In this document: positions 42,769-52,789 of the stretch, piece after piece | Position numbering within the stretch: the first letter of the stretch is position 1 | Layout of the letters: each line of letters opens with the position of its first letter | NCBI GenBank assembly: GCA_964644965.1 | Contig: CAZXYN010000001.1 | Coordinates: 139,012-203,011, forward strand | Direction of reading: 5' to 3' | DNA from: an uncultured Candidatus Saccharibacteria bacterium | GTDB lineage: Bacteria; Patescibacteriota; Saccharimonadia; Saccharimonadales; JACDBH01 | DNA length: 64,000 nucleotides | Notes under the pieces: model-generated | What the model saw: only the letters and a program-made list of their open reading frames with translations | Databases searched by the model: none | What the model was told of the DNA's origin: nothing | Program-made: the position numbers and the translations under genes

Positions 42769-43281
42769 ATGCCACGAGTTACTTATCCGGGTGGTGTGCA
42801 TCACCTGTCTGGTGAGTTTACTCTTGGCCAGGCGAAAAATATCATCAGCGCACTACCTGATGTTGCGGATGTTTTACCCGATTACGACGATATTTCTGGC
42901 AACCGCGGCTATATTGTGTGGAAACACAACGAAGACGAGAATATACCAACCTTTGCACACCGGGCACTCGCGCTTGTACAATCTACCACTGTCAAAAGAG
43001 AATCCCTAAGATCCATCCAGCTAAACCACCAAGGTCGTAGCGGATCACAAGAAGCACATACTGACTATCCATTCACAAGCAGCATGACTATGCACCTATC
43101 GCCAGAGGGCGGACTTATATATCAGACCCCCAATGATGATGAAGCTATTATTAGAACAAACATCGGTGATGTCGTAATACTCGAGCGAGCAAACGAAACA
43201 CTCCATAGAGGCATCAACCTGTCTGATATCGGCAGAGTAACGTTGTCTTTCTTTTTTAACGGCAAGGCGTTTTCTCTATGA
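42769..43281 (+). CDS. Hypothetical protein, possibly 2OG-Fe(II)-oxygenase/cupin-like
   Basis: H-T-D ... ~50 aa ... H (HTDYP...LHRG) arranged like the HxD...H facial triad, with GG.L..Q / GDVVILE strands; weak. Confidence 0.3.
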   Translation: MPRVTYPGGVHHLSGEFTLGQAKNIISALPDVADVLPDYDDISGNRGYIVWKHNEDENIPTFAHRALALVQSTTVKRESLRSIQLNHQGRSGSQEAHTDYPFTSSMTMHLSPEGGLIYQTPNDDEAIIRTNIGDVVILERANETLHRGINLSDIGRVTLSFFFNGKAFSL

Positions 43282-43592
43282 ACGAACAAGCCCCACAACC
43301 AGAAGAGTCACTTGTAGAAAGACTAGCCCGCTTAGAGCAAGACATGACGGCAAACGCTAGCGAGCTCTATATGCTTTATGAGAATGTGCTTGATCTTATT
43401 TCTATGCAAAGCGAAGGCGAGCAAGACAGGCAGCACTTGATCAGACTGGCAGATTCATACGTAGAGTTTGCGTACAAAAGACGCATAGCCTCTATGTACT
43501 TGGACCCCGATGACGATCGCTACTATCACAACCAAAGGGAATCTCTGCAAAAGAGAATTGAAGGTCTAGACCTAGAATATTTCGAACTCTAG
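43278..43592 (+). CDS. Hypothetical acidic protein coupled (ATGA) to the upstream gene
   Basis: 104 aa, predicted coiled-coil-like; no motif I recognise. Confidence 0.4.
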   Translation: MNEQAPQPEESLVERLARLEQDMTANASELYMLYENVLDLISMQSEGEQDRQHLIRLADSYVEFAYKRRIASMYLDPDDDRYYHNQRESLQKRIEGLDLEYFEL

Positions 43593-43883: not shown

Positions 43884-44318
43884 ATGGCAGAAGCAAAGAA
43901 AATCAAAGCAAATCTGAAGATGAAGATAAAAGGCGGCCAAGCAAGCGCAGCGCCTCCTGTTGGTAGCACCCTCGGTCAGTACGGTGTAAACATGATGGAC
44001 TTTATCGGTCCGTTCAACGACGCCACTAAGGACAAGATGGGTCAGGATCTGACTGTCCACATCACGATTTACGACGACCGCACTATGAGCTGGAGAAGTG
44101 TTGGTACACCAACTGACGACCTTATTCGAAAAGCCCTGGGCATCCAAAAAGGTTCTGGTGTTCCAAACAAGGAAAAAATCGCCAAAAAGCTTAACCAAGC
44201 TCAGCTAACCGAAATCGCCCAGACCAAGATGGAAGATATGAATGCTGACAATATTGAATCGGTCAAAAAAATGGTAGCTGGTACTGCCCGCAGCATGGGT
44301 GTAGAAGTCGAAGGCTAA
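43884..44318 (+). CDS. rplK: 50S ribosomal protein L11
   Basis: KMKIKGGQASAAPPVGSTLGQYGVNMMDF. Confidence 0.95.
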   Translation: MAEAKKIKANLKMKIKGGQASAAPPVGSTLGQYGVNMMDFIGPFNDATKDKMGQDLTVHITIYDDRTMSWRSVGTPTDDLIRKALGIQKGSGVPNKEKIAKKLNQAQLTEIAQTKMEDMNADNIESVKKMVAGTARSMGVEVEG

Positions 44319-44330
44319 ATCCTAAAGGCA

Positions 44331-44510
44331 ATGAACAAAAATTCTGAACAAGCTCAGGCATCTACAACTATCGACCTTGAGCAGGAAATTGTTGAACAAG
44401 TATCTGACTTGGGTAGATTTGCGCTAGGCACATTCACTGAAAATGCCCAGCCAGAAACTCCCAATATTGTGAAAATTCGCATTCCATTCCAGCTACCATG
44501 GAATAGATAA
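44331..44510 (+). CDS. Small ORF (59 aa) between rplK and rplA
   Basis: Hand translation MNKNSEQAQASTTIDLEQEIVEQVSDLGRFALGTFTENAQPETPNIVKIRIPFQLPWNR*; below the track cutoff; weak SD. Confidence 0.25.
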   Translation: MNKNSEQAQASTTIDLEQEIVEQVSDLGRFALGTFTENAQPETPNIVKIRIPFQLPWNR

Positions 44511-44526
44511 CTAGTTTGCCTATACC

Positions 44527-44578
44527 AAAAAACCTCCGTATAGTTACCCGTCAAAGGTTAACAGCGGAGGTTTTTTAT
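44527..44578. terminator. Terminator hairpin within the rplK-rplA spacer
   Basis: AAAAAACCTCCG...CGGAGGTTTTTT. Confidence 0.55.
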
Positions 44579-44753
44579 GGGCGAACACGACAAAGAAGCA
44601 GTAAGTATGCGTGATAATTCGGGTCTAATGCCAGACTACGACACTGTGGTAGGTGAAATCTGGAAACACCAAGCTGCTGGTGACAAAATGGCTGCCCAGG
44701 CTGTCATGGATCTTACCGGTATCAATATAGAGTTTGAGGGTGATGGACGCTAG
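44577..44753 (+). CDS. Small ORF (58 aa) between rplK and rplA
   Basis: MGEHDKEAVSMRDNSGLMPDYDTVVGEIWKHQAAGDKMAAQAVMDLTGINIEFEGDGR*; GGAGG SD 7 nt upstream. Confidence 0.35.
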   Translation: MGEHDKEAVSMRDNSGLMPDYDTVVGEIWKHQAAGDKMAAQAVMDLTGINIEFEGDGR

Positions 44754-44849
44754 TATTTATCTCTGTTATCTGCTATAATTAGGTTATCAAATTAATTTGT
44801 GGGAGGCCGCTTAGTCAAGCGTCCATTTGCACCACGGAAGGATCATATT

Positions 44850-45863
44850 ATGGCTAAGAAAGCCGACCTACTCGAGCAAGCCAAAGGCTTAGGACTCGAA
44901 GTCACAGACAAAAATACGATTGCTGAAATCGAAGCAGCAATCAAAGCTGCAGATTCTGCAACCGAAGCACCTGAGGTAGTCAAAATAAGCGAAGCGCAAT
45001 CCAGCACTTCCGGCAAAGCCGATAGTGCTGTGACCGCCAAAGCCGGTAAGCGCAGCGCTAAGGCCATCAAAGAAGCCGAGGAGCTTCAGGCAAAAGAAGA
45101 ACGCAAAGCCTCAAAAGCTGAGACAGAAGCCAGCGAAGTCAAAAAGCCAGTCAAACCACCAACTCGTTCACGCTTAGAACGCGCTGGCAAGAAGCTCCGC
45201 AAAGCCTCTGAACTTGTCGAAAACGATAAACAGTACGCTATCAAGGAAGCTCTAGAACTAGCTACCAAGACAAGCACAACCAAGTTTGATGCAACTGTCG
45301 AGCTGCACATCAATCTAAACGTCGACCCTCGTCAGGCAGACCAGAACATACGTGATAATGTTGTCCTACCAAGTGGTACGGGTAAAACAGTCCGGGTTGC
45401 GGCACTAGTAGAAGCTGACGATGAAGCAGCCGCCAAAAAGGCTGGGGCTGACATCGCCGGGCACGAAGATCTGCTAAAGGCAATCGAGAAGGGCGTGATT
45501 GATTTTGACATCCTAATCTCAACTCCAACTCTGATGGCAAAACTTGGCAAGTATGCTCGCACACTCGGTCCAAAAGGTCTGATGCCAAATCCAAAGAGCG
45601 GTACGGTTACGACTGATGTTCCTAAGGCGATCCAACAAGCCAAGGCTGGTCGGGTAGAGTACCGGGTTGATTCAACCGGAATTGTTCACTTAGGCATCGG
45701 TAAGGTTAGCTTTGGCGCTGACAAACTGATGGTTAACACCCAAGCAATTTTTGATTCTATCAAGGCTAACAAACCAAACAGCATCAAGGGCAACTACGTA
45801 AAGGCAATCACTGTTAGTAGCACAATGGGTCCTGGTATCAAGGTTCTGACTACAGAACTCTAA
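44850..45863 (+). CDS. rplA: 50S ribosomal protein L1 with a ~105 aa N-terminal extension (HeH/Rho_N-like motif plus KAE-rich linker)
   Basis: L1 core from KKLRKASELVENDKQYAIKEALELA...NLNVDPRQADQNIRDNVVLPSGTGK; start at ATG 44850 (SD GGAAGGA), not the track 44799 start; N-terminal ADLLEQAKGLGLEVTDKNTIAEIEAAI. Confidence 0.85.
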   Translation: MAKKADLLEQAKGLGLEVTDKNTIAEIEAAIKAADSATEAPEVVKISEAQSSTSGKADSAVTAKAGKRSAKAIKEAEELQAKEERKASKAETEASEVKKPVKPPTRSRLERAGKKLRKASELVENDKQYAIKEALELATKTSTTKFDATVELHINLNVDPRQADQNIRDNVVLPSGTGKTVRVAALVEADDEAAAKKAGADIAGHEDLLKAIEKGVIDFDILISTPTLMAKLGKYARTLGPKGLMPNPKSGTVTTDVPKAIQQAKAGRVEYRVDSTGIVHLGIGKVSFGADKLMVNTQAIFDSIKANKPNSIKGNYVKAITVSSTMGPGIKVLTTEL

Positions 45864-45885
45864 ACAAAAGCGGCAGCTACATTCA

Positions 45886-45925
45886 AAAAAGAATTACGTA
45901 ATTAATTACGTAATTCTTTTTTTGT
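45886..45925. terminator. Perfect 15+15 palindrome terminator after rplA
   Basis: AAGAATTACGTAATTAATTACGTAATTCTTTTTTT. Confidence 0.65.
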
Positions 45926-45990
45926 TGGTGCTTGTTCGCAAATTCACGCGCCATGTGCGTGAAAACTACAACATGTTTATGCTTGTGGCG

Positions 45991-46944
45991 CTACTCTATG
46001 CACATTGGTGTAAGGTTGAGGTATGCGACTGCTTCTGCTTGCTCTTGAGTCAGCAAGTCACAGTCAAAAATATATCCATTATCAACCTCTACGTCAGTCA
46101 CTTTGACCCAATCTCCTTCGTCAGACTCCTTAGTTAAGAATGCATAGATAGAATTGTCGGACACATCTTTTGCACTCAGAAAGGCGTACGACTGATTGTT
46201 GCTGTTCGTATAGAAGCTTACGTCTACATCTTTATCTGCTTTGCTTGATGAAGAAGACTCATATGCGCCTAGTACATTACTTAATTGTATCTTGAAGCGG
46301 TCTATCTTCGCACTTTCAATGCAGTTAACCCTTGCATAATTAGGGTTTGCATAGGTCCTGCAGCTGACACCAGCCCCTGTTAACACTGCTGACTTATCTG
46401 GTGTAGATGTTCCGGATGTCCTAACTTCCCCAGTCAACCCATGGGCCATGATACTACTGTTTATTTGGTCAATTATGTCCATACCCACTTGGCTATAGTT
46501 TAGATAGACGTCTGAGTAAATATCTAAAGTTAAATCTTCCTCTTCATAGTGATAGCTATCTACATAACTGTCGATGGAAGGTTCTGTATGATTTGGGTTA
46601 TAAGCTAATAGATCGGACCTTATTTCATCTAATATTTGTGATGCTGATTTTTGTTCTAAATCAGACTGTATCGCCGTGTCATCTGTTTTAGAATTATTGG
46701 TTAGCTCCTGATTATCCTCTTTGTTGAAAACTAGAAGATAGGAAGCAACCCCAATAGAAAGCAATAATATGATTGCAGCAACTATAAATGGTAGTTTTTT
46801 AGATTTTTTTGGCTGCTCTGGAAGTGGGGCTGGCGCTGTCGGCTGCTGAAGAGTTGATCCGCCTGCAGCTACAGGACTGTCTTCTGGTTGAATCGCTTGA
46901 CCTGGCTGCAGCGGTTGATTTGTGTTGTCTTGATTATTATCCAT
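45991..46944 (-). CDS. Membrane-anchored extracellular protein with a Pro/Gln-rich N-terminus
   Basis: 317 aa; single TM helix LPFIVAAIILLLSIGVASYLLV; no known domain. Confidence 0.5.
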   Translation of the reverse strand: MDNNQDNTNQPLQPGQAIQPEDSPVAAGGSTLQQPTAPAPLPEQPKKSKKLPFIVAAIILLLSIGVASYLLVFNKEDNQELTNNSKTDDTAIQSDLEQKSASQILDEIRSDLLAYNPNHTEPSIDSYVDSYHYEEEDLTLDIYSDVYLNYSQVGMDIIDQINSSIMAHGLTGEVRTSGTSTPDKSAVLTGAGVSCRTYANPNYARVNCIESAKIDRFKIQLSNVLGAYESSSSSKADKDVDVSFYTNSNNQSYAFLSAKDVSDNSIYAFLTKESDEGDWVKVTDVEVDNGYIFDCDLLTQEQAEAVAYLNLTPMCIE

Positions 46945-47155
46945 TGTTGATGCCTATTTAAATAATTATCCTAAGTCTAGCATAAGAGTTATGGGCACGT
47001 AAGCTTCATACGTTTACAGCATTTATAGTGTCAAATGTCGCCTATTCATAAGAACATGCTTATGTTTATAAAAACCACAACACAAAAATGCTTGTGGTGC
47101 TAGTCTATGGTCTGTAAACTTACTCTCAGTACTACTTTGGAGGGAGACAACAGCT

Positions 47156-47869
47156 TTGGGCGTTTTCAGCAATATTCAAATCCGGCAGGCCATAAAGGAC
47201 GATCACATCGTATGCGTGCCGTTCAACGAAAAACACGTCAGTCAGGCTAGCCTGGATGTAACGCTTGGCTACCACTACTACCGTGTGGAACGGGCAAATG
47301 AACGCAATATTTATAATCCATTCGACCGCGAGGATGTAGAGCGGTATTTTGATGGACCATACAAGGCCATGCCGCACAAGGCTTGGTGCGATCTAAATGG
47401 TGTTAAGACGCAGAAAAACATTCCAGATGATCATCCGGTGATTGCAATCAAGCCTGGCGAGCGCATCCTGGCCCACACTCATGAATTCTTTGGTATCAAA
47501 CCACCAGGCGCCTGCGAAGTAAAAAGCCGCTCTAGCTGGGGGCGTAACGGCGTGGCTGTGTGTTTTGACGCTGGCTGGATTGACCCAGGCTATGTAAACC
47601 GTCTAACTCTAGAAATCTTTAACCTCAATCAGCGCGAAACAATCTTGCTACCTGTCGGTGAGCGTATTGCTCAGATTGTTTTTCACCACACCGGCGAAGT
47701 AGATGGCAACTATGGTCAAGGTAGAGACAAAGGTTTTAGTGGCAAATACCAGACTGGTACCGACTTCAAATCAATCATAACAACTTGGGATCCAGCTCAA
47801 ATGCTACCAAAGGCCTGGAAAGACAAGCGCGAAATGCCTATCAAACTCGAAGGTGTAAGTTATGAATAG
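47156..47869 (+). CDS. dcd: dCTP deaminase / dUTPase-superfamily protein with a C-terminal extension
   Basis: IVCVPFNEKHVSQASLDVTLG and VCFDAGWIDPGYVNRLTLEIFN match the Dcd family. Confidence 0.7.
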   Translation: MGVFSNIQIRQAIKDDHIVCVPFNEKHVSQASLDVTLGYHYYRVERANERNIYNPFDREDVERYFDGPYKAMPHKAWCDLNGVKTQKNIPDDHPVIAIKPGERILAHTHEFFGIKPPGACEVKSRSSWGRNGVAVCFDAGWIDPGYVNRLTLEIFNLNQRETILLPVGERIAQIVFHHTGEVDGNYGQGRDKGFSGKYQTGTDFKSIITTWDPAQMLPKAWKDKREMPIKLEGVSYE

Positions 47870-47985
47870 ACCACTCACCCAAAGTACTCGGATGGGCGCT
47901 TTACAGGTAGGCTGCGCCCAGCCTGTGGCGCTTGCTTACCCATCAGAGAACTTAGGGTTCATTCTTGGTAGGGATGGAGTGATTT

Positions 47986-50298
47986 ATGAGTAGAGGGCGC
48001 TACATTGTCATAGAAGGACCAGAAGGTGTTGGCAAGACCACTCAGATTGAGACACTAGCAAATCGTTTGCTTGAGGCTGGCTACCCAGTGCGAGTTTTTC
48101 GTGAGCCAGATAGCCAAACAGACCTAACGGCTAGAACAATTAGGCAGATGACTCAAGACCCAAACTACCCAATGAATACTCGTACTGAAGTGCTACTTTA
48201 TAACGCTGCTCGCAGCCAATCCCTAGAGGTAATCCGTAAAGCCCGCGACCAAGGTGTCATCTGCTTGTGCGATAGAAACTACCTTACAACACTAGCAATT
48301 CAATACTATGGCCGCGGTGATGTGCCGGATTATGAGACTATCACTAGCATTATCGATTTTGCAGTCGCCGACATGCAACCAGACATGACCATTGTGCTCG
48401 ACGCACCAGTGCAGACACTGCGCCAGCGAGCTCATGATAGAGGGGCAGGCGAGAGATTTGACAATCTTGACGAAGCCTTTCTTGAACGAGTACGAGCTGG
48501 CTACCTTTGGGAAGCAAAGCAGCGTAACTTACCTGTGGTATTTGCCAGCAATTCACAGGAGCAAGTTGCCGAGGACATTTGGAAAACTATTCATGGAAAA
48601 ATGTCTGTGCAAGTTGCAGAGAACACAGCTCCACCAGTTAGCTTGGCTGCACCAGCTACATCAATAAAAGAAGTGATAGACAAGAAAAAAGAGACCATTC
48701 ACGAGCCTCAAGACATTGAATATGTTAAGAAAAATGACAATGGCAATTATGAAATCACCCCTGATGGCAAAGCTTTCTTGGGCGACGCAGTCACGAATAC
48801 TGACGGCGATGTTTATGGATTCACCGACAAACTTAGCACTACAACCATAGCTGCAGCCATGGCACGTCTCAGTCGGCGCGGTGACGATATGCGTATCACT
48901 ATACTCGATGAGTTTGCTGGCGCTATGGGTAAGGACGAGAAGCTCTTGCATCGAGTTATCACGGCTTATGGCGACGATTCTGTCCAACAACTGGTTGGCC
49001 AGCATTTGGTTGTTGAGAACGCCAGTAATTTGCTAACTAAGAAGCTCGAATGGGGCAGGCTAGCCAGCTACCTAGAACAATCAACTCGCTATATTTACTT
49101 CGATCAAAAGGACGACCAGGGTCGCTACCGTTACTTTGTGCCAAAGGATCTGCCAAAAGCAGTCAAGGCCAGATACATCAGTGCCATGGACGATATCTTT
49201 GATAATTATTCGGACATGGTGCGCAATATTACAGATTATGTTCGGGCTAACAGCAAGGTTCCAAAGGCCGAGCGAGACGCAGCCTTCAACGGTGCTACTC
49301 GCGCTCAAGCCTGCGATGCAATACGTCCGGTACTACCTGTGGCAACCAAATCAACTGTCGGTATTTATGCATCAGGTCAGGCGCTAGAGAGCCTAATTAT
49401 GCACCTGATGAGTGATGAGCTCCCAGAAGCCAAGACAACTGGTGAGGCCATGCTGCGGGAAGCTCGCAAGACTATTCCGACCTTCCTAGAACGAGCTGAT
49501 AAGCCAGATCGTGGTGGAGCCGCTATCGCTTACAGAGCTCAGACTTACAAATCCATGAAAGAACTGGCCGAAAAGCAAGTCCCGGGCACGCTGGGCAATC
49601 TAGACGATGATGTGCAGCTGGTGGACTACTGGCCCCGCAACGAGCTCGATTTGCTTCCGCACATGCTCTACGAACATTCAGCGCTAAGTCTGAAGGATTT
49701 ACAAAAAGAAGTTGCCGGCTGGTCATATGATCAGAAAACTGAGGCATTCATAACCTACATGGGCGAACGGCTCAATCGCCGCCACCGCCCAGGCCGCGCA
49801 TTAGAAATAGCTCACTATAGCTGGGATCTCATCTGTGATTATGGTATTTTTCGTGATTTGCAGCGCCATCGTATGGTCGACAGCCTAGAGTGGCAGCCAC
49901 TGACACCGCGCTACGGATTTGATATACCAGAACTCGTCGAAAAGGCCGGTTTGAGCGAACAGTTTGAAGCTTGTTTTGATAAAAGTGCCGAACTATACAG
50001 TTACTTGCAGTCTAAAGGCTTTGCGCTCGAAGCCCAGTATGCGACCCTGTTAGGCCACCGAATGCGCTGGAAGATTACTTACAACGCCCGCGAGGCCTTC
50101 CACCTGCACGAACTCCGTACCAGCCCACAAGGCCACCCGGGCTATCGAAAACTTGTCAAAGAAATGCACGACAAGTTAACAGAAGTTCATCCACTACTTG
50201 GGCAGGCAATGAAGTTTGTTAATAAAGGCGAAGACGAAGAGCTAACCCGTCTAGCCGCCGAGCGCTACACCCAATTCAAGCTAAACAACCTATCTTAG
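47986..50298 (+). CDS. tmk: Fusion protein: thymidylate kinase (N-terminal ~205 aa) plus tandem flavin-dependent thymidylate synthase ThyX-like domains
   Basis: Tmk P-loop IVIEGPEGVGKTTQ and CDRNYLTTLAIQ. C-terminal ThyX signature LQRHRMVDSLEWQPLTPRY and HLHELRTSPQGHPGYRKL. An upstream degenerate copy carries WGRLASYLEQSTRY in place of RHR...S..RY. Confidence 0.7.
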   Translation: MSRGRYIVIEGPEGVGKTTQIETLANRLLEAGYPVRVFREPDSQTDLTARTIRQMTQDPNYPMNTRTEVLLYNAARSQSLEVIRKARDQGVICLCDRNYLTTLAIQYYGRGDVPDYETITSIIDFAVADMQPDMTIVLDAPVQTLRQRAHDRGAGERFDNLDEAFLERVRAGYLWEAKQRNLPVVFASNSQEQVAEDIWKTIHGKMSVQVAENTAPPVSLAAPATSIKEVIDKKKETIHEPQDIEYVKKNDNGNYEITPDGKAFLGDAVTNTDGDVYGFTDKLSTTTIAAAMARLSRRGDDMRITILDEFAGAMGKDEKLLHRVITAYGDDSVQQLVGQHLVVENASNLLTKKLEWGRLASYLEQSTRYIYFDQKDDQGRYRYFVPKDLPKAVKARYISAMDDIFDNYSDMVRNITDYVRANSKVPKAERDAAFNGATRAQACDAIRPVLPVATKSTVGIYASGQALESLIMHLMSDELPEAKTTGEAMLREARKTIPTFLERADKPDRGGAAIAYRAQTYKSMKELAEKQVPGTLGNLDDDVQLVDYWPRNELDLLPHMLYEHSALSLKDLQKEVAGWSYDQKTEAFITYMGERLNRRHRPGRALEIAHYSWDLICDYGIFRDLQRHRMVDSLEWQPLTPRYGFDIPELVEKAGLSEQFEACFDKSAELYSYLQSKGFALEAQYATLLGHRMRWKITYNAREAFHLHELRTSPQGHPGYRKLVKEMHDKLTEVHPLLGQAMKFVNKGEDEELTRLAAERYTQFKLNNLS

Positions 50299-50465
50299 CT
50301 AGATGTATTGTTAGGTCAGGACTGTCAATAATAAGCGATGCGTAGCAGCTGCTACTCAGAGTGAATTATTGGCAGTTATGGACAACAAGACGCTGGCTAA
50401 GACAGTTATTTTAGTTTGAATTTGGGTGTACCAACCCAAAGTTCAAGCTAGAACAGCTCAAATAA

Positions 50466-50648
50466 CTAGTCTTCGTAAATACCCCAGTCTGGACCTATGC
50501 TTAGTAGTGCCGCACCGAGGGTTAGACCCTCTCCTCTTAGCCTCATAAGTTCTGCTCGCTCCGAGTCGAATTCTTGTTGAGGGGTACGACCATCATGTAC
50601 GAGCCTTGGCTCGCCGTCTATTTCTGGTTCTCTTTCAGTTATTGACAT
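50466..50648 (-). CDS. Small hypothetical protein (60 aa)
   Basis: Good SD (AGGAGATATATAAAATG on the minus strand); acidic. Confidence 0.35.
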   Translation of the reverse strand: MSITEREPEIDGEPRLVHDGRTPQQEFDSERAELMRLRGEGLTLGAALLSIGPDWGIYED

Positions 50649-50944
50649 TTTATATATCTCCTAATTTATTCTTGTGATGAAGTGACAACTGGAGGTGAAA
50701 GGCTTGGGGAGGAGCGAAAGGCTCATTATTGACTCCCCAGCCACAGTGGTAGGCTTTGTTATTTTCCGGGCAGAATGGCGCAACCCATTTGTGAGCGCGT
50801 ACTTAACAAAGTAGTTAGACAGGATGGGCAACGGGCCGCAATCCTTGCGAGGAAGAAAGGAGATTTCCTCTATCTAGCTCGCTACGTGAACGAGGCTGCC
50901 ATATAAGGCGCCACGCGTAGCCCTACCACAACCTCGAAGGAACT

Positions 50945-51144
50945 TCAGCTCGAATCGGCCAGCGTGTTAGCACGCGCTTCAGTCTCATGCCGATCAATGA
51001 CATCGAGGAGGCTCTGTACCTCTGGTTCTCCGAGCATATCTCTATTCGAGAGCACATACTTTCGTGCACTATCGTACATGCCATACTCAATGCGTGACGA
51101 TAGTTCGTCATCAAAGTGCCTATACCTCTCATCCTGACGGCTCA
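50945..51144 (-). CDS. Small hypothetical protein (~66 aa from MSRQDERY)
   Basis: GGAGG SD upstream of the internal ATG; the track ORF extends to 51181. Confidence 0.3.
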
Positions 51145-51476
51145 TAGTATCCTCCAGTTGTCCAAATTGTGTGTTCCGCAATTTACGGAACAGGTACTAT
51201 CCCCCACGGGGACGGTAGGAAGCGGTGCTTCCATGGCTATCGTCAAATCATTGATGACAATCATGGACTCGCCGATAAAAAAACCGGATCCCTTTGGTTG
51301 GAATCCGGTGTTTGTTTTCGAGCTTTTTGGCGCGTACTAGATTCCAACCATTATTTCGCCACAATAAACGCATAACCGAGCTTGTGGCTTGGCATACACT
51401 TGGCGAGAATGGTTTGGATCATTTGTATCACGAGTATTGAATGTACGCCTGTCTAAATTGGTTGTCAAGTAATTGG

Positions 51477-51505
51477 TTGACTTTTGTACGTTTTACCCCT
51501 ATAAT
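51477..51505 (+). promoter_or_regulatory. Consensus sigma70 promoter for rplJL
   Basis: TTGACT, 17 nt spacer, TATAAT. Confidence 0.55.
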
Positions 51506-51748
51506 AATCAGTGATTACCAAAGACAGTAGCTGTCAGTAAAATGACTTAATTTGCTACCGAGGCGATTTAGTAGATAGTAGCTAGTAGCTAGTATTTAGT
51601 AAACTCCTGTAAATGTCCCTGGTTAGTCCTGGGACTTTTTTAGTTCTAGTAATCAGCAGAATCTTTCGGTCGATAAGATTATGCAACTGTAAACCATAAC
51701 TTCGTACTTAGTACTCCATACTTTGTACCTTACTCCAAAGGAGTATCA
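51506..51748 (+). promoter_or_regulatory. rplJ (L10) leader with an attenuator-like hairpin
   Basis: ~240-nt untranslated leader; GTCCCTGGTTAGTCCTGGGACTTTTTT hairpin at 51615-51641; TAGTAGCTAG direct repeats. Confidence 0.45.
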
Positions 51749-52270
51749 ATGGCTTTAACAAAAGACAAGAAACACGAAGTTGTCGCCCAGGTAAGCGAAC
51801 TACTAGCTTCATCGAAGCTAACCGTGGTCGCCGAGTACAAGGGCACAACCGTAAAAGCAATCCAGACTCTGCGCCGTGAAGCAAAGGGAAATGGCACCAA
51901 AGTAAGCGTTATCAAGAACCGCCTGGTTATCAAGGCGCTTGAAAGTAGCGACACTTTCAAAGACATCGAAACAGGTGTTTTTACCGGTCAGCTCCTATAT
52001 GCATTCAACAGCGAAGACGAGGTTGCTCCTGCACAAGTACTAGATACTTTTGCTAAGAGCAATCCTAATCTTCAGTTTGTTGGTGCAATCACCGCTGACG
52101 GACAGTTTATGAGCGCAGACGACGTTAAATCGCTTGCAGGCCTACCAAGCAAGAATGAGCTTATCGCTCAGGTTATTGCAACTCTGCAGTCACCGGTTAA
52201 CGATGTCATGAGTGGCCTATCAGGCAACTTGCACGCTCTACTGGACGGTATTGAGGCGAAAGCAGCCTAA
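51749..52270 (+). CDS. rplJ: 50S ribosomal protein L10
   Basis: MALTKDKKHEVVAQVSELLASSKLTVVAEYKGTTV. Confidence 0.9.
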   Translation: MALTKDKKHEVVAQVSELLASSKLTVVAEYKGTTVKAIQTLRREAKGNGTKVSVIKNRLVIKALESSDTFKDIETGVFTGQLLYAFNSEDEVAPAQVLDTFAKSNPNLQFVGAITADGQFMSADDVKSLAGLPSKNELIAQVIATLQSPVNDVMSGLSGNLHALLDGIEAKAA

Positions 52271-52402: not shown

Positions 52403-52789
52403 ATGGCGAAAGATCTAAAGAAACTCGCAGAAGAACTTACAAGCCTAACTGTGCTTGAAGTAAACGAACTAAAGAACGTCCTTAAGGACGAATACGGCAT
52501 TGAGCCAGCTGCTGCAGCTGCAGTTGTTGCTGGTCCTGCTGCTGGCGGTGACGCTGGTGCACAAGCGGACGAAGGCAAAGCTGAATACGATGTTGTCCTT
52601 AAGGACGCAGGCGCTCAGAAGGTTGCTGTTATCAAGGCTGTCAAAGACATCACTGGTCTTGGCCTAGGCGAAGCAAAAGCTATCGTAGACGGCGCTCCAA
52701 AGACCGTTGTCGAGAAGGCTCCAAAAGAAGAAGCAGAAGCTCACAAGAAGACTCTTGAAGAAGCTGGCGCTACTGTCGAACTATCATAA
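52403..52789 (+). CDS. rplL: 50S ribosomal protein L7/L12
   Basis: Ala-rich hinge plus C-terminal domain [28 protein letters not shown]... Confidence 0.95.

Follow-up and report, generated by a model that had tools for sequence, protein, structure and literature searches.

A dTMP kinase fused to a tandem ThyX with divided active-site residues, encoded beside dcd within the rplKAJL cluster of Saccharibacteria

The classical ThyX (FDTS) thymidylate synthases, such as those of Thermotoga maritima (TM0449), Mycobacterium tuberculosis (Rv2754c), Helicobacter pylori and PBCV-1 (A674R), are homotetramers, and inter-subunit complementation has reportedly been shown with mixed tetramers of mutant ThyX. 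In the M. tuberculosis enzyme, the RHR motif, Arg95 and Arg199 are contributed by subunit A, Ser71 and Arg190 by subunit B, and Arg87, Ser105, Arg107 and Tyr108 by subunit C (PMC6514825); the division is the same in PBCV-1 ThyX, where monomer B provides the Ser88 loop and monomer A provides Arg182 (PMC3498832). Arg174 (T. maritima numbering) activates deoxyuridine monophosphate (dUMP), and Ser88, Arg90 and Tyr91 assist methylene transfer (PMC8316439). Here we analysed a 64,000-nucleotide (nt) stretch of contig CAZXYN010000001.1 from an uncultured Candidatus Saccharibacteria bacterium (the window), in which a protein of 770 amino acids (aa), a thymidylate kinase (Tmk) fused to two ThyX repeats, is encoded together with a dCTP deaminase (dcd) between the ribosomal protein genes rplKA and rplJL.

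All contacts to dUMP and flavin adenine dinucleotide (FAD) that are named in the review literature on ThyX were found somewhere in this fusion chain. However, the chain differs from the classical enzymes in having two diverged, fused repeats instead of identical subunits, with a Tmk attached, and in the division of the RHRx7SxRY motif, where the RHR and the Arg174-type arginine lie in repeat 2 and the S-x-R-Y loop lies in repeat 1. The rplKAJL cluster also departs from its usual form, since the module parts rplKA from rplJL and this separation is conserved across the lineage. We consider it probable that dcd and the Tmk fused to a single-chain, split-site ThyX form a lineage-fixed thymidylate module of Saccharibacteria, located between rplKA and the L10 leader with rplJL.

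Domains of the fusion protein and residues of the two ThyX repeats

Pfam and NCBIfam profiles identified, with E-values far outside chance expectation, the products of the two genes as a Dcd and as a Tmk followed by two ThyX domains, which were recovered in the C-terminal part of the protein as an initial annotation, made from the sequence, had proposed. The elements of the module are:

47156..47869, plus strand: dcd, 237 aa (PF22769, E 8e-35; TIGR02274, 97.5 bits, above the cutoff of 92.8)
47986..50298, plus strand: tmk-thyX-thyX fusion open reading frame (ORF), 770 aa (PF02223 and two PF02511 stretches)
47986..48600, plus strand: Tmk domain, aa 1-205 (PF02223, E 5e-31, matched over aa 9-198; TIGR00041, 116.4 bits, above the cutoff of 83.25)
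48601..48720, plus strand: low-complexity variable linker, aa 206-245 (comparison of homologues and model confidence)
48721..49578, plus strand: ThyX repeat 1, aa 246-531 (PF02511, E 8e-17, aa ~286-499 when the half was scanned separately)
49606..50295, plus strand: ThyX repeat 2, aa 541-770 (PF02511, E 8e-18, aa 545-736 when the half was scanned separately)

The Tmk domain has a conserved P-loop (GPEGVGKT, nt 48016-48039), D96-R97 of the DR motif (nt 48271-48276) and the lid arginines R148, R152 and R157. It matched PDB entries by sequence down to E 1e-28 and by Foldseek with a template modelling score of ~0.8, normalised to the Tmk chains. A sequence search of the PDB with the whole protein returned Tmk matches only, and ThyX was reached by profile searches; no solved structure with a tandem ThyX architecture was found in the PDB sequence and profile searches. 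With the Thy1 model of Pfam, the fusion passed the gathering score (121.6 against 24.8). Since the full-length Foldseek search against the PDB was dominated by Tmk, the tandem region was also modelled alone. The AlphaFold2 model of the full-length protein, built from a 76-sequence alignment, had a predicted local distance difference test (pLDDT) of 82.6 and a predicted template modelling score (pTM) of 0.65, and that of the tandem region alone had a pLDDT of 89.6 and a pTM of 0.87. The only disordered segment of the full-length model was aa 205-225 (pLDDT below 50).

The linker varied in length and sequence among 28 homologues. The substrate channelling suggested in the initial annotation thus found no support, because the segment joining Tmk to ThyX is variable and predicted to be disordered; the benefit of the fusion more likely lies in co-expression, fixed stoichiometry and proximity than in channelling of the tunnel type. 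The DHFR-TS proteins of protozoa and plants are bifunctional fusions of the thymidylate cycle, in which dihydrofolate is channelled electrostatically. The Tmk-ThyX fusion resembles them in carrying consecutive enzymes of thymidylate metabolism in one chain. However, DHFR-TS is built from other enzymes (ThyA and DHFR), and in the Tmk-ThyX fusion the linker is predicted to be disordered and no interface between the parts is predicted, as the lower pTM of the full-length model indicates.

Profiles of the two repeats were aligned to the ThyX sequences of M. tuberculosis, T. maritima, H. pylori and PBCV-1, and repeat 1 was aligned with repeat 2 using hhalign; the registers agreed. The equivalents of the active-site residues, in T. 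maritima numbering, are:

H53: D331 in repeat 1 (lost); no clean alignment in repeat 2
R78: W356 in repeat 1 (lost); R627 in repeat 2
H79: G357 in repeat 1 (lost); H628 in repeat 2
R80: R358 in repeat 1; R629 in repeat 2
E86: E364 in repeat 1; E635 in repeat 2 (poorly conserved in unfused proteins)
S88: S366 in repeat 1; Q637 in repeat 2 (lost)
R90: R368 in repeat 1; L639 in repeat 2 (lost)
Y91: Y369 in repeat 1; lost in repeat 2
R147: R447 in repeat 1; Q684 in repeat 2 (lost)
N163/R165: S463/Q465 in repeat 1 (lost); N700/R702 in repeat 2
R174: L474 in repeat 1 (lost); R711 in repeat 2 (nt 50116-50118)

The two motifs quoted in the initial annotation, WGRLASYLEQSTRY of repeat 1 (nt 49051-49092) and RHR of repeat 2 (nt 49864-49872), are present. 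The complete motif RHRx7S(x)RY occurs in neither repeat, and only the two repeats combined give the whole of it: repeat 1 reads WGR-LASYLEQ-S-T-RY and repeat 2 reads RHR-MVDSLEW-Q-P-L. Only repeat 2 has R711, N700 and R702, and the spacing there is the canonical one of 9 residues. The PRY of repeat 2, which had been taken for the end of its motif, is out of register, as it lies 12 residues past RHR instead of 9 and aligns with GRYRY of repeat 1. The description of one dead and one live repeat therefore has to be revised, since each keeps half of the residues (S366/R368/Y369, R358 and R447 in repeat 1; R627-R629 and R711 in repeat 2). With the published subunit attributions, this table assigns to repeat 2 exactly the residues of the A role and to repeat 1 exactly those of the C role. 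We infer that the tandem is a single-chain ThyX pseudo-heterodimer in which the number of active sites is halved.

In the proposed arrangement, a conventional N-terminal dTMP kinase would be tied by a flexible linker to this pseudo-heterodimer. Repeat 2 would act as 'subunit A', with its RHR binding the FAD phosphates, the isoalloxazine and dUMP, and with its Arg174-type arginine activating dUMP. Repeat 1 would act as 'subunit C', placing the Ser88/Arg90/Tyr91 loop over dUMP, and the reciprocal combination of the repeats would have none of these residues. A dimer of the fusion protein would rebuild the core of the ThyX tetramer with two working and two vestigial sites, as expected from the 222 symmetry of the tetramer whichever repeat takes the B role; two sites are thus predicted per four domains, instead of the four of the classical enzymes.

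The Dcd product could supply the substrate of this enzyme. Its best solved relatives were 4xjc, the M. tuberculosis structures 2qxx, 4a6a and 2qlp, and 1ogh from M. jannaschii, the last of which bears the deposited name 'dCTP deaminase, dUMP-forming'. Bifunctionality is also a property of 4xjc and of the M. tuberculosis Dcd. No Dcd structure of the E. coli type was present among the 14 PDB matches at E ≤ 1e-3. The odds that the window Dcd is of the dUMP-forming type seem about even. A dUMP-forming Dcd would make the route dCTP to dUMP to dTMP to dTDP complete without a separate dUTPase. The compact dCTP-to-dTDP route of the initial annotation was correct as an idea and lacked the step from dUTP to dUMP, which the putative dUMP-forming Dcd would close. 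The window Dcd differs from the dUMP-forming dCTP deaminase:dUTPases (1ogh and 2qxx) in its length of 237 aa, with a C-terminal extension of ~40-50 aa. This extension (aa ~190-237) lies beyond the Pfam and NCBIfam models, and the full length was matched in essentially all of 80 relatives.

Conservation of the module and of the tandem ThyX

Scanning one genome for each species identified 531 that encode a relative. The best 80 loci, almost all of them labelled Saccharibacteria, were compared with the window by tblastn using the window proteins. The dcd gene was directly upstream of the fusion gene in all 80, and the order rplA - dcd - tmk/thyX - rplJ was colinear on one strand in 69 of the 69 loci with sufficient flanking sequence. 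The dcd and tmk-thyX ORFs overlap in 59/80 loci; in the window they are separated by 116 nt. The spacers on either side were variable, from 124 to 3523 nt between rplA and dcd and from 250 to 6634 nt between thyX and rplJ, and in the tightest loci the latter consists of little beyond the L10 leader. Among the flanking ORFs of the window, one of 317 aa was absent from all loci reaching upstream of dcd (L003, L004-L083), and two small ones (60 and 78 aa) occurred in no loci other than L001 and L002, which are contigs of the same strain.

Because dcd precedes the fusion gene in every locus, the gene order is constant and variation is limited to the flanking ORFs, the core of dcd and tmk-thyX is an ancestral feature, fixed in Saccharibacteria, and its flanks are variable hot spots. 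The separation of rplKA from rplJL described in the initial annotation was thus confirmed, with all of the elements that it had listed present at their positions. Its interpretation as an insertion in this genome was not borne out: the rplA-rplJ synteny comparison in relatives that it had suggested found the module throughout, and only the flanking ORFs are strain-specific. The core could nevertheless have been acquired long ago, when the lineage arose.

More than 120 full-length homologues of ~770-790 aa, with 68-100% identity, were present in a public protein collection that includes the exact protein, and all of them combine Tmk with Thy1. Those with a name are annotated as 'dTMP kinase' or 'putative thymidylate synthase' and come from Candidatus Saccharibacteria or Saccharimonadales. 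A literature search found no description of ThyX in Saccharibacteria, of a thyX-tmk fusion or of a two-domain ThyX. In 28 Saccharibacteria homologues with 69-85% identity, all 25 inspected positions were invariant.

An exhaustive search with the tandem region returned 3453 cluster representatives (E ≤ 1e-3), of which 724 reached E ≤ 1e-30, and the best 150 were examined. Among these, 38 carry Tmk and ~90 are unfused tandem ThyX proteins of 500-600 aa. The complementary division of residues holds in 93 unfused representatives. In their repeat 1, the equivalents of R80, E86, S88, R90 and R147 are kept in 90-92/93 and that of Y91 in 88/93; in their repeat 2, the RHR and the R174 equivalent are kept in 90-92/93, and S88 is replaced by Q in 82/93. 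These proteins come from Acidimicrobiia/Actinomycetota, Methylomirabilota, Binatia, Woesebacteria and one DPANN archaeon, and are annotated as 'FAD-dependent thymidylate synthase'; a homologue of tandem length (491 aa) is encoded by Microcystis phage LMM01. The long ThyX of Chlamydia is a further candidate for the tandem family. The unfused proteins (typically ~520-560 aa) have the same two repeats with the same residue split, are 38-55% identical to the ThyX region of the window protein and lack the Tmk domain, and we found no PDB entry and no paper on them. As the same pattern is present in the unfused tandem ThyX of other phyla and in the phage homologue of that length, the split site is old and widespread, and the Tmk fusion is what has been added in Saccharibacteria.

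Degenerate fusions and alternative explanations

The Tmk-fused representatives with at least 53% identity to the window protein keep all nine of the core ThyX residues. More divergent ones, ~27 of the 37 Tmk-fused cluster representatives, have only 0-5 of the nine, with the Tmk motifs mostly retained. Seven loci of this degenerate type were fetched and their gene content was checked by tblastn; the fusions are at L084 8001-10241, L086 10001-12409, L087 10001-12298, L088 10001-12214, L089 6402-8609, L090 1916-4300 and L091 9271-11439. The degenerate fusion was located between rplA and rplJ wherever the contig reaches that far. The dcd gene was lost in six of the seven loci. In its place stood a dCMP deaminase in 6/7, frequently as a fusion with a HIT domain, ThyA in five (in one of them split across two frames) and DHFR in four. 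The 81 independent loci of the intact type had dcd in all 81 cases, and ThyA and dCMP deaminase in none.

This distribution of dcd and ThyA argues for the intact ThyX of the window being the working thymidylate synthase, and the pattern of the degenerate loci argues that the ThyX module can persist as a pseudo-domain after takeover by ThyA. Since the decayed ThyX stays fused to Tmk, a non-catalytic role of the module would exist in relatives. These observations suggest a wider reading, which we hold tentatively and as somewhat less probable than its opposite: tandem ThyX proteins, including the Tmk fusion, would be obligate split-site enzymes with half the sites, which in related fusions decayed to a Tmk-fused pseudoenzyme with a second role. 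After duplication, the repeats would have lost complementary halves of the active site, fixing inter-subunit complementation in one chain. In the related fusions the catalytic residues of the whole ThyX module would later have disappeared, for the most part at loci in which a cassette of ThyA, DHFR and dCMP deaminase replaces dcd. Retention of the fusion implies the second, non-catalytic role, for which Tmk dimerisation, regulation by dUMP or FAD, and replisome association are candidates.

ThyX needs no DHFR. As a separate observation, three intact-ThyX loci have a DHFR-like gene just upstream of dcd (L050 715-1080, L055 6607-6972 and L082 6497-6880); these genes share ~30-35% identity with the DHFR found at ThyA-type loci.

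Several points weigh against the picture of a working split-site ThyX and of its replacement in relatives. The fusion scored 50.5 bits with the NCBIfam ThyX equivalog TIGR02170, below the cutoff of 87.9, in which it differs from the classical enzymes. The composite site is deduced from the sequence register and from the published subunit attributions, and at the R174 position of repeat 1 the register could be off by one residue: a one-residue gap in the HMMER alignment sets residue 473, an H in the window protein and an R or K in 66/93 unfused proteins, opposite M. tuberculosis R199. The FAD-binding residues of 'subunit B' are divided, with S332 in repeat 1 and R702 in repeat 2. The Dcd could form either dUMP or dUTP. 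Among the degenerate loci, L089 keeps dcd and has no visible ThyA within 9.8 kb, and the seven loci may represent one clade or a few events, in which case the association counts are not independent.

The division of residues can be set against two other views of the tandem. The first, built on the initial annotation, takes repeat 1 for a dead pseudo-domain, with repeat 2 as a complete and self-sufficient ThyX that forms all active sites. Repeat 1 does lack the Arg-His of RHR (W356 and G357), and repeat 2 has the RHR plus an RY downstream. However, repeat 2 has Q637, L639 and Q684 at the Ser88, Arg90 and Arg147 positions, and its RY, besides being shifted by three residues to align with GRYRY of repeat 1, is not conserved in the unfused relatives (R in 25/93, Y in 9/93). 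The E-x-S-x-R-Y of repeat 1 and R447, on the other hand, are kept in 88-92/93, which would be unexpected of a dead domain, and we regard this view as very unlikely. A still smaller chance may be given to action on another substrate, with the tandem being a PolB-like UMP/dUMP methylase or another pyrimidine-modifying enzyme. No characterised member of the tandem family was found, which leaves room for such a function, but the protein is fused to dTMP kinase, the consumer of the ThyX product, it is coupled to dcd, and it keeps the dUMP-contacting residues, and at the corresponding locus of related fusions it is replaced by ThyA, DHFR and dCMP deaminase.

The remaining alternatives concern the activity and the origin of the module. 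Saccharibacteria are host-dependent, and the ThyX part of the window protein could be an inactive scaffold or regulator of Tmk, with thymidylate coming from salvage or from another enzyme. The low TIGR02170 score and the many Tmk-fused representatives that have lost most core residues yet keep the fusion (~27/37) are in line with such a role. However, in the window protein and its 28 homologues of 69-100% identity all nine core residues and all 25 inspected positions are invariant, the coupled upstream gene encodes the putative dUMP supplier in 80/80 loci, and neither ThyA nor dCMP deaminase was found in the 64-kb window or in the 81 intact-type loci. An inactive ThyX is therefore unlikely, although it is the least improbable of the alternatives. 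The most improbable is that this strain recently acquired, by horizontal transfer from a phage or an island, a cassette for nucleotide metabolism that entered its rplKAJL operon. Phage homologues of Dcd, Tmk and ThyX exist (PHROG matches), ThyX of tandem length occurs in phages such as Microcystis phage LMM01, and the flanking ORFs are strain-specific, with one of them bracketed by a direct repeat. However, the core occupies the same place in 80 species-level genomes, its GC content (0.45-0.52) is similar to that of the flanks, Pfam, NCBIfam and PHROG searches found no mobility function, and there is no tRNA in or beside the region; only the 317-aa ORF and the small ORFs look newly acquired. 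A recent mobile or phage origin of the core, for which repeats and PHROGs were checked, was thus ruled out by the synteny.

Neither the component enzymes nor the L10 leader is new, fusions in the thymidylate pathway are a known idea, and the proteins are already in databases under partial names. What we regard as new is the Tmk fusion of the putative split-site tandem ThyX, present lineage-wide inside the rplKAJL cluster, and, in related fusions, the apparent pathway replacement at the same locus with the pseudoenzyme retained. A natural single-chain pseudo-heterodimer would separate the roles of 'subunit A' and 'subunit C' genetically and could be useful for dissecting the three-subunit active site, and a split-site tandem ThyX may matter for ThyX-directed inhibitors. 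Bacteria with reduced genomes that depend on a host could make dTDP from dCTP with two genes, in a thymidylate pathway hard-wired into the ribosomal-protein cluster. The loci with ThyA, DHFR and dCMP deaminase beside a decayed Tmk-fused ThyX would be a clean example of pathway replacement and of the origin of a pseudoenzyme. For annotation, the proteins now bear only the names 'dTMP kinase' or 'putative thymidylate synthase', and naming by Pfam alone would also label as ThyX those degenerate fusions that still match PF02511.

Neighbouring genes and non-coding elements

The other features of the region are:

43884..44318, plus strand: rplK (L11; PF03946 and PF00298)
44799..45863, plus strand: rplA (L1), 354 aa (PF00687, E 5e-60, aa 156-345)
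45885..45922, no strand assigned: perfect 19+19-nt palindrome, candidate bidirectional terminator (inverted-repeat search, 100% complementary)
45991..46944, minus strand: strain-specific 317-aa ORF, in the variable flank outside the conserved module (no Pfam or PHROG match)
50466..50648, minus strand: small 60-aa ORF in the variable flank (no family match)
50945..51181, minus strand: small 78-aa ORF in the variable flank (no significant family match)
51477..51505, plus strand: promoter-like TTGACT-17-TATAAT at the 5' edge of the L10 leader (11/12 consensus matches)
51500..51650, plus strand: L10 leader RF00557, autoregulatory RNA of rplJL (64.8 bits against a gathering score of 44)
51749..52270, plus strand: rplJ (L10; PF00466, E 1e-20)
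52403..52789, plus strand: rplL (L7/L12; ORF, with PF16320 and PF00542 found on the identical gene in L001)

The 'structured non-coding stretch' noted in the initial annotation is present and proved to be nothing special, as it is an ordinary L10 leader, whose covariance-model score exceeds the gathering score of RF00557. It ends ~100 nt 5' of rplJ and was also found upstream of rplJ in seven of the eight relatives tested, so that the unit of leader and rplJL is intact, with the leader directly upstream of rplJ as in the usual cluster. The promoter-like site at its edge is a consensus match only, and such sites were not above the shuffled expectation in the region.

The perfect palindrome (AAAAAAGAATTACGTAATT/AATTACGTAATTCTTTTTT) begins 22 nt past the rplA stop, between the convergent rplA and 317-aa ORF, and is preceded by a run of A and followed by a run of T; it is possibly a bidirectional terminator. 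An imperfect 30-nt palindrome (50321-50376, 77% complementary) begins 23 nt past the tmk-thyX stop codon and may be the terminator of the module.

The 317-aa ORF has one hydrophobic segment. Neither it nor the small ORFs matched a Pfam or PHROG family, and their NCBIfam matches were marginal and far below cutoff. A 48-nt direct repeat, 75% identical, brackets the 317-aa ORF (45953-46000 and 47062-47109), and may be a duplication of the rplA-dcd intergenic sequence from the time when this ORF was acquired. In some relatives, rplA is followed by a gene of the deoxynucleotide monophosphate kinase family (DNMK, PF21448; L003 4732-5487 and L087 2770-3531), a further nucleotide kinase at the same locus.

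In the predicted rplA product, the L1 domain does not start before aa 156 and follows an N-terminal extension with a high content of K, A and E. Gene calls for L1 in relatives likewise give 303-366 aa, which makes the extension look like a feature of the lineage and not a wrong start. Family-less ORFs were present between nusG and rplK (170 and 104 aa, 42769-43592) and at the rplK-rplA junction (59 and 58 aa, 44331-44753). In relatives, both of these junctions hold other small ORFs, and the intergenic junctions across the secE-nusG-rplKAJL cluster seem permissive to insertions.

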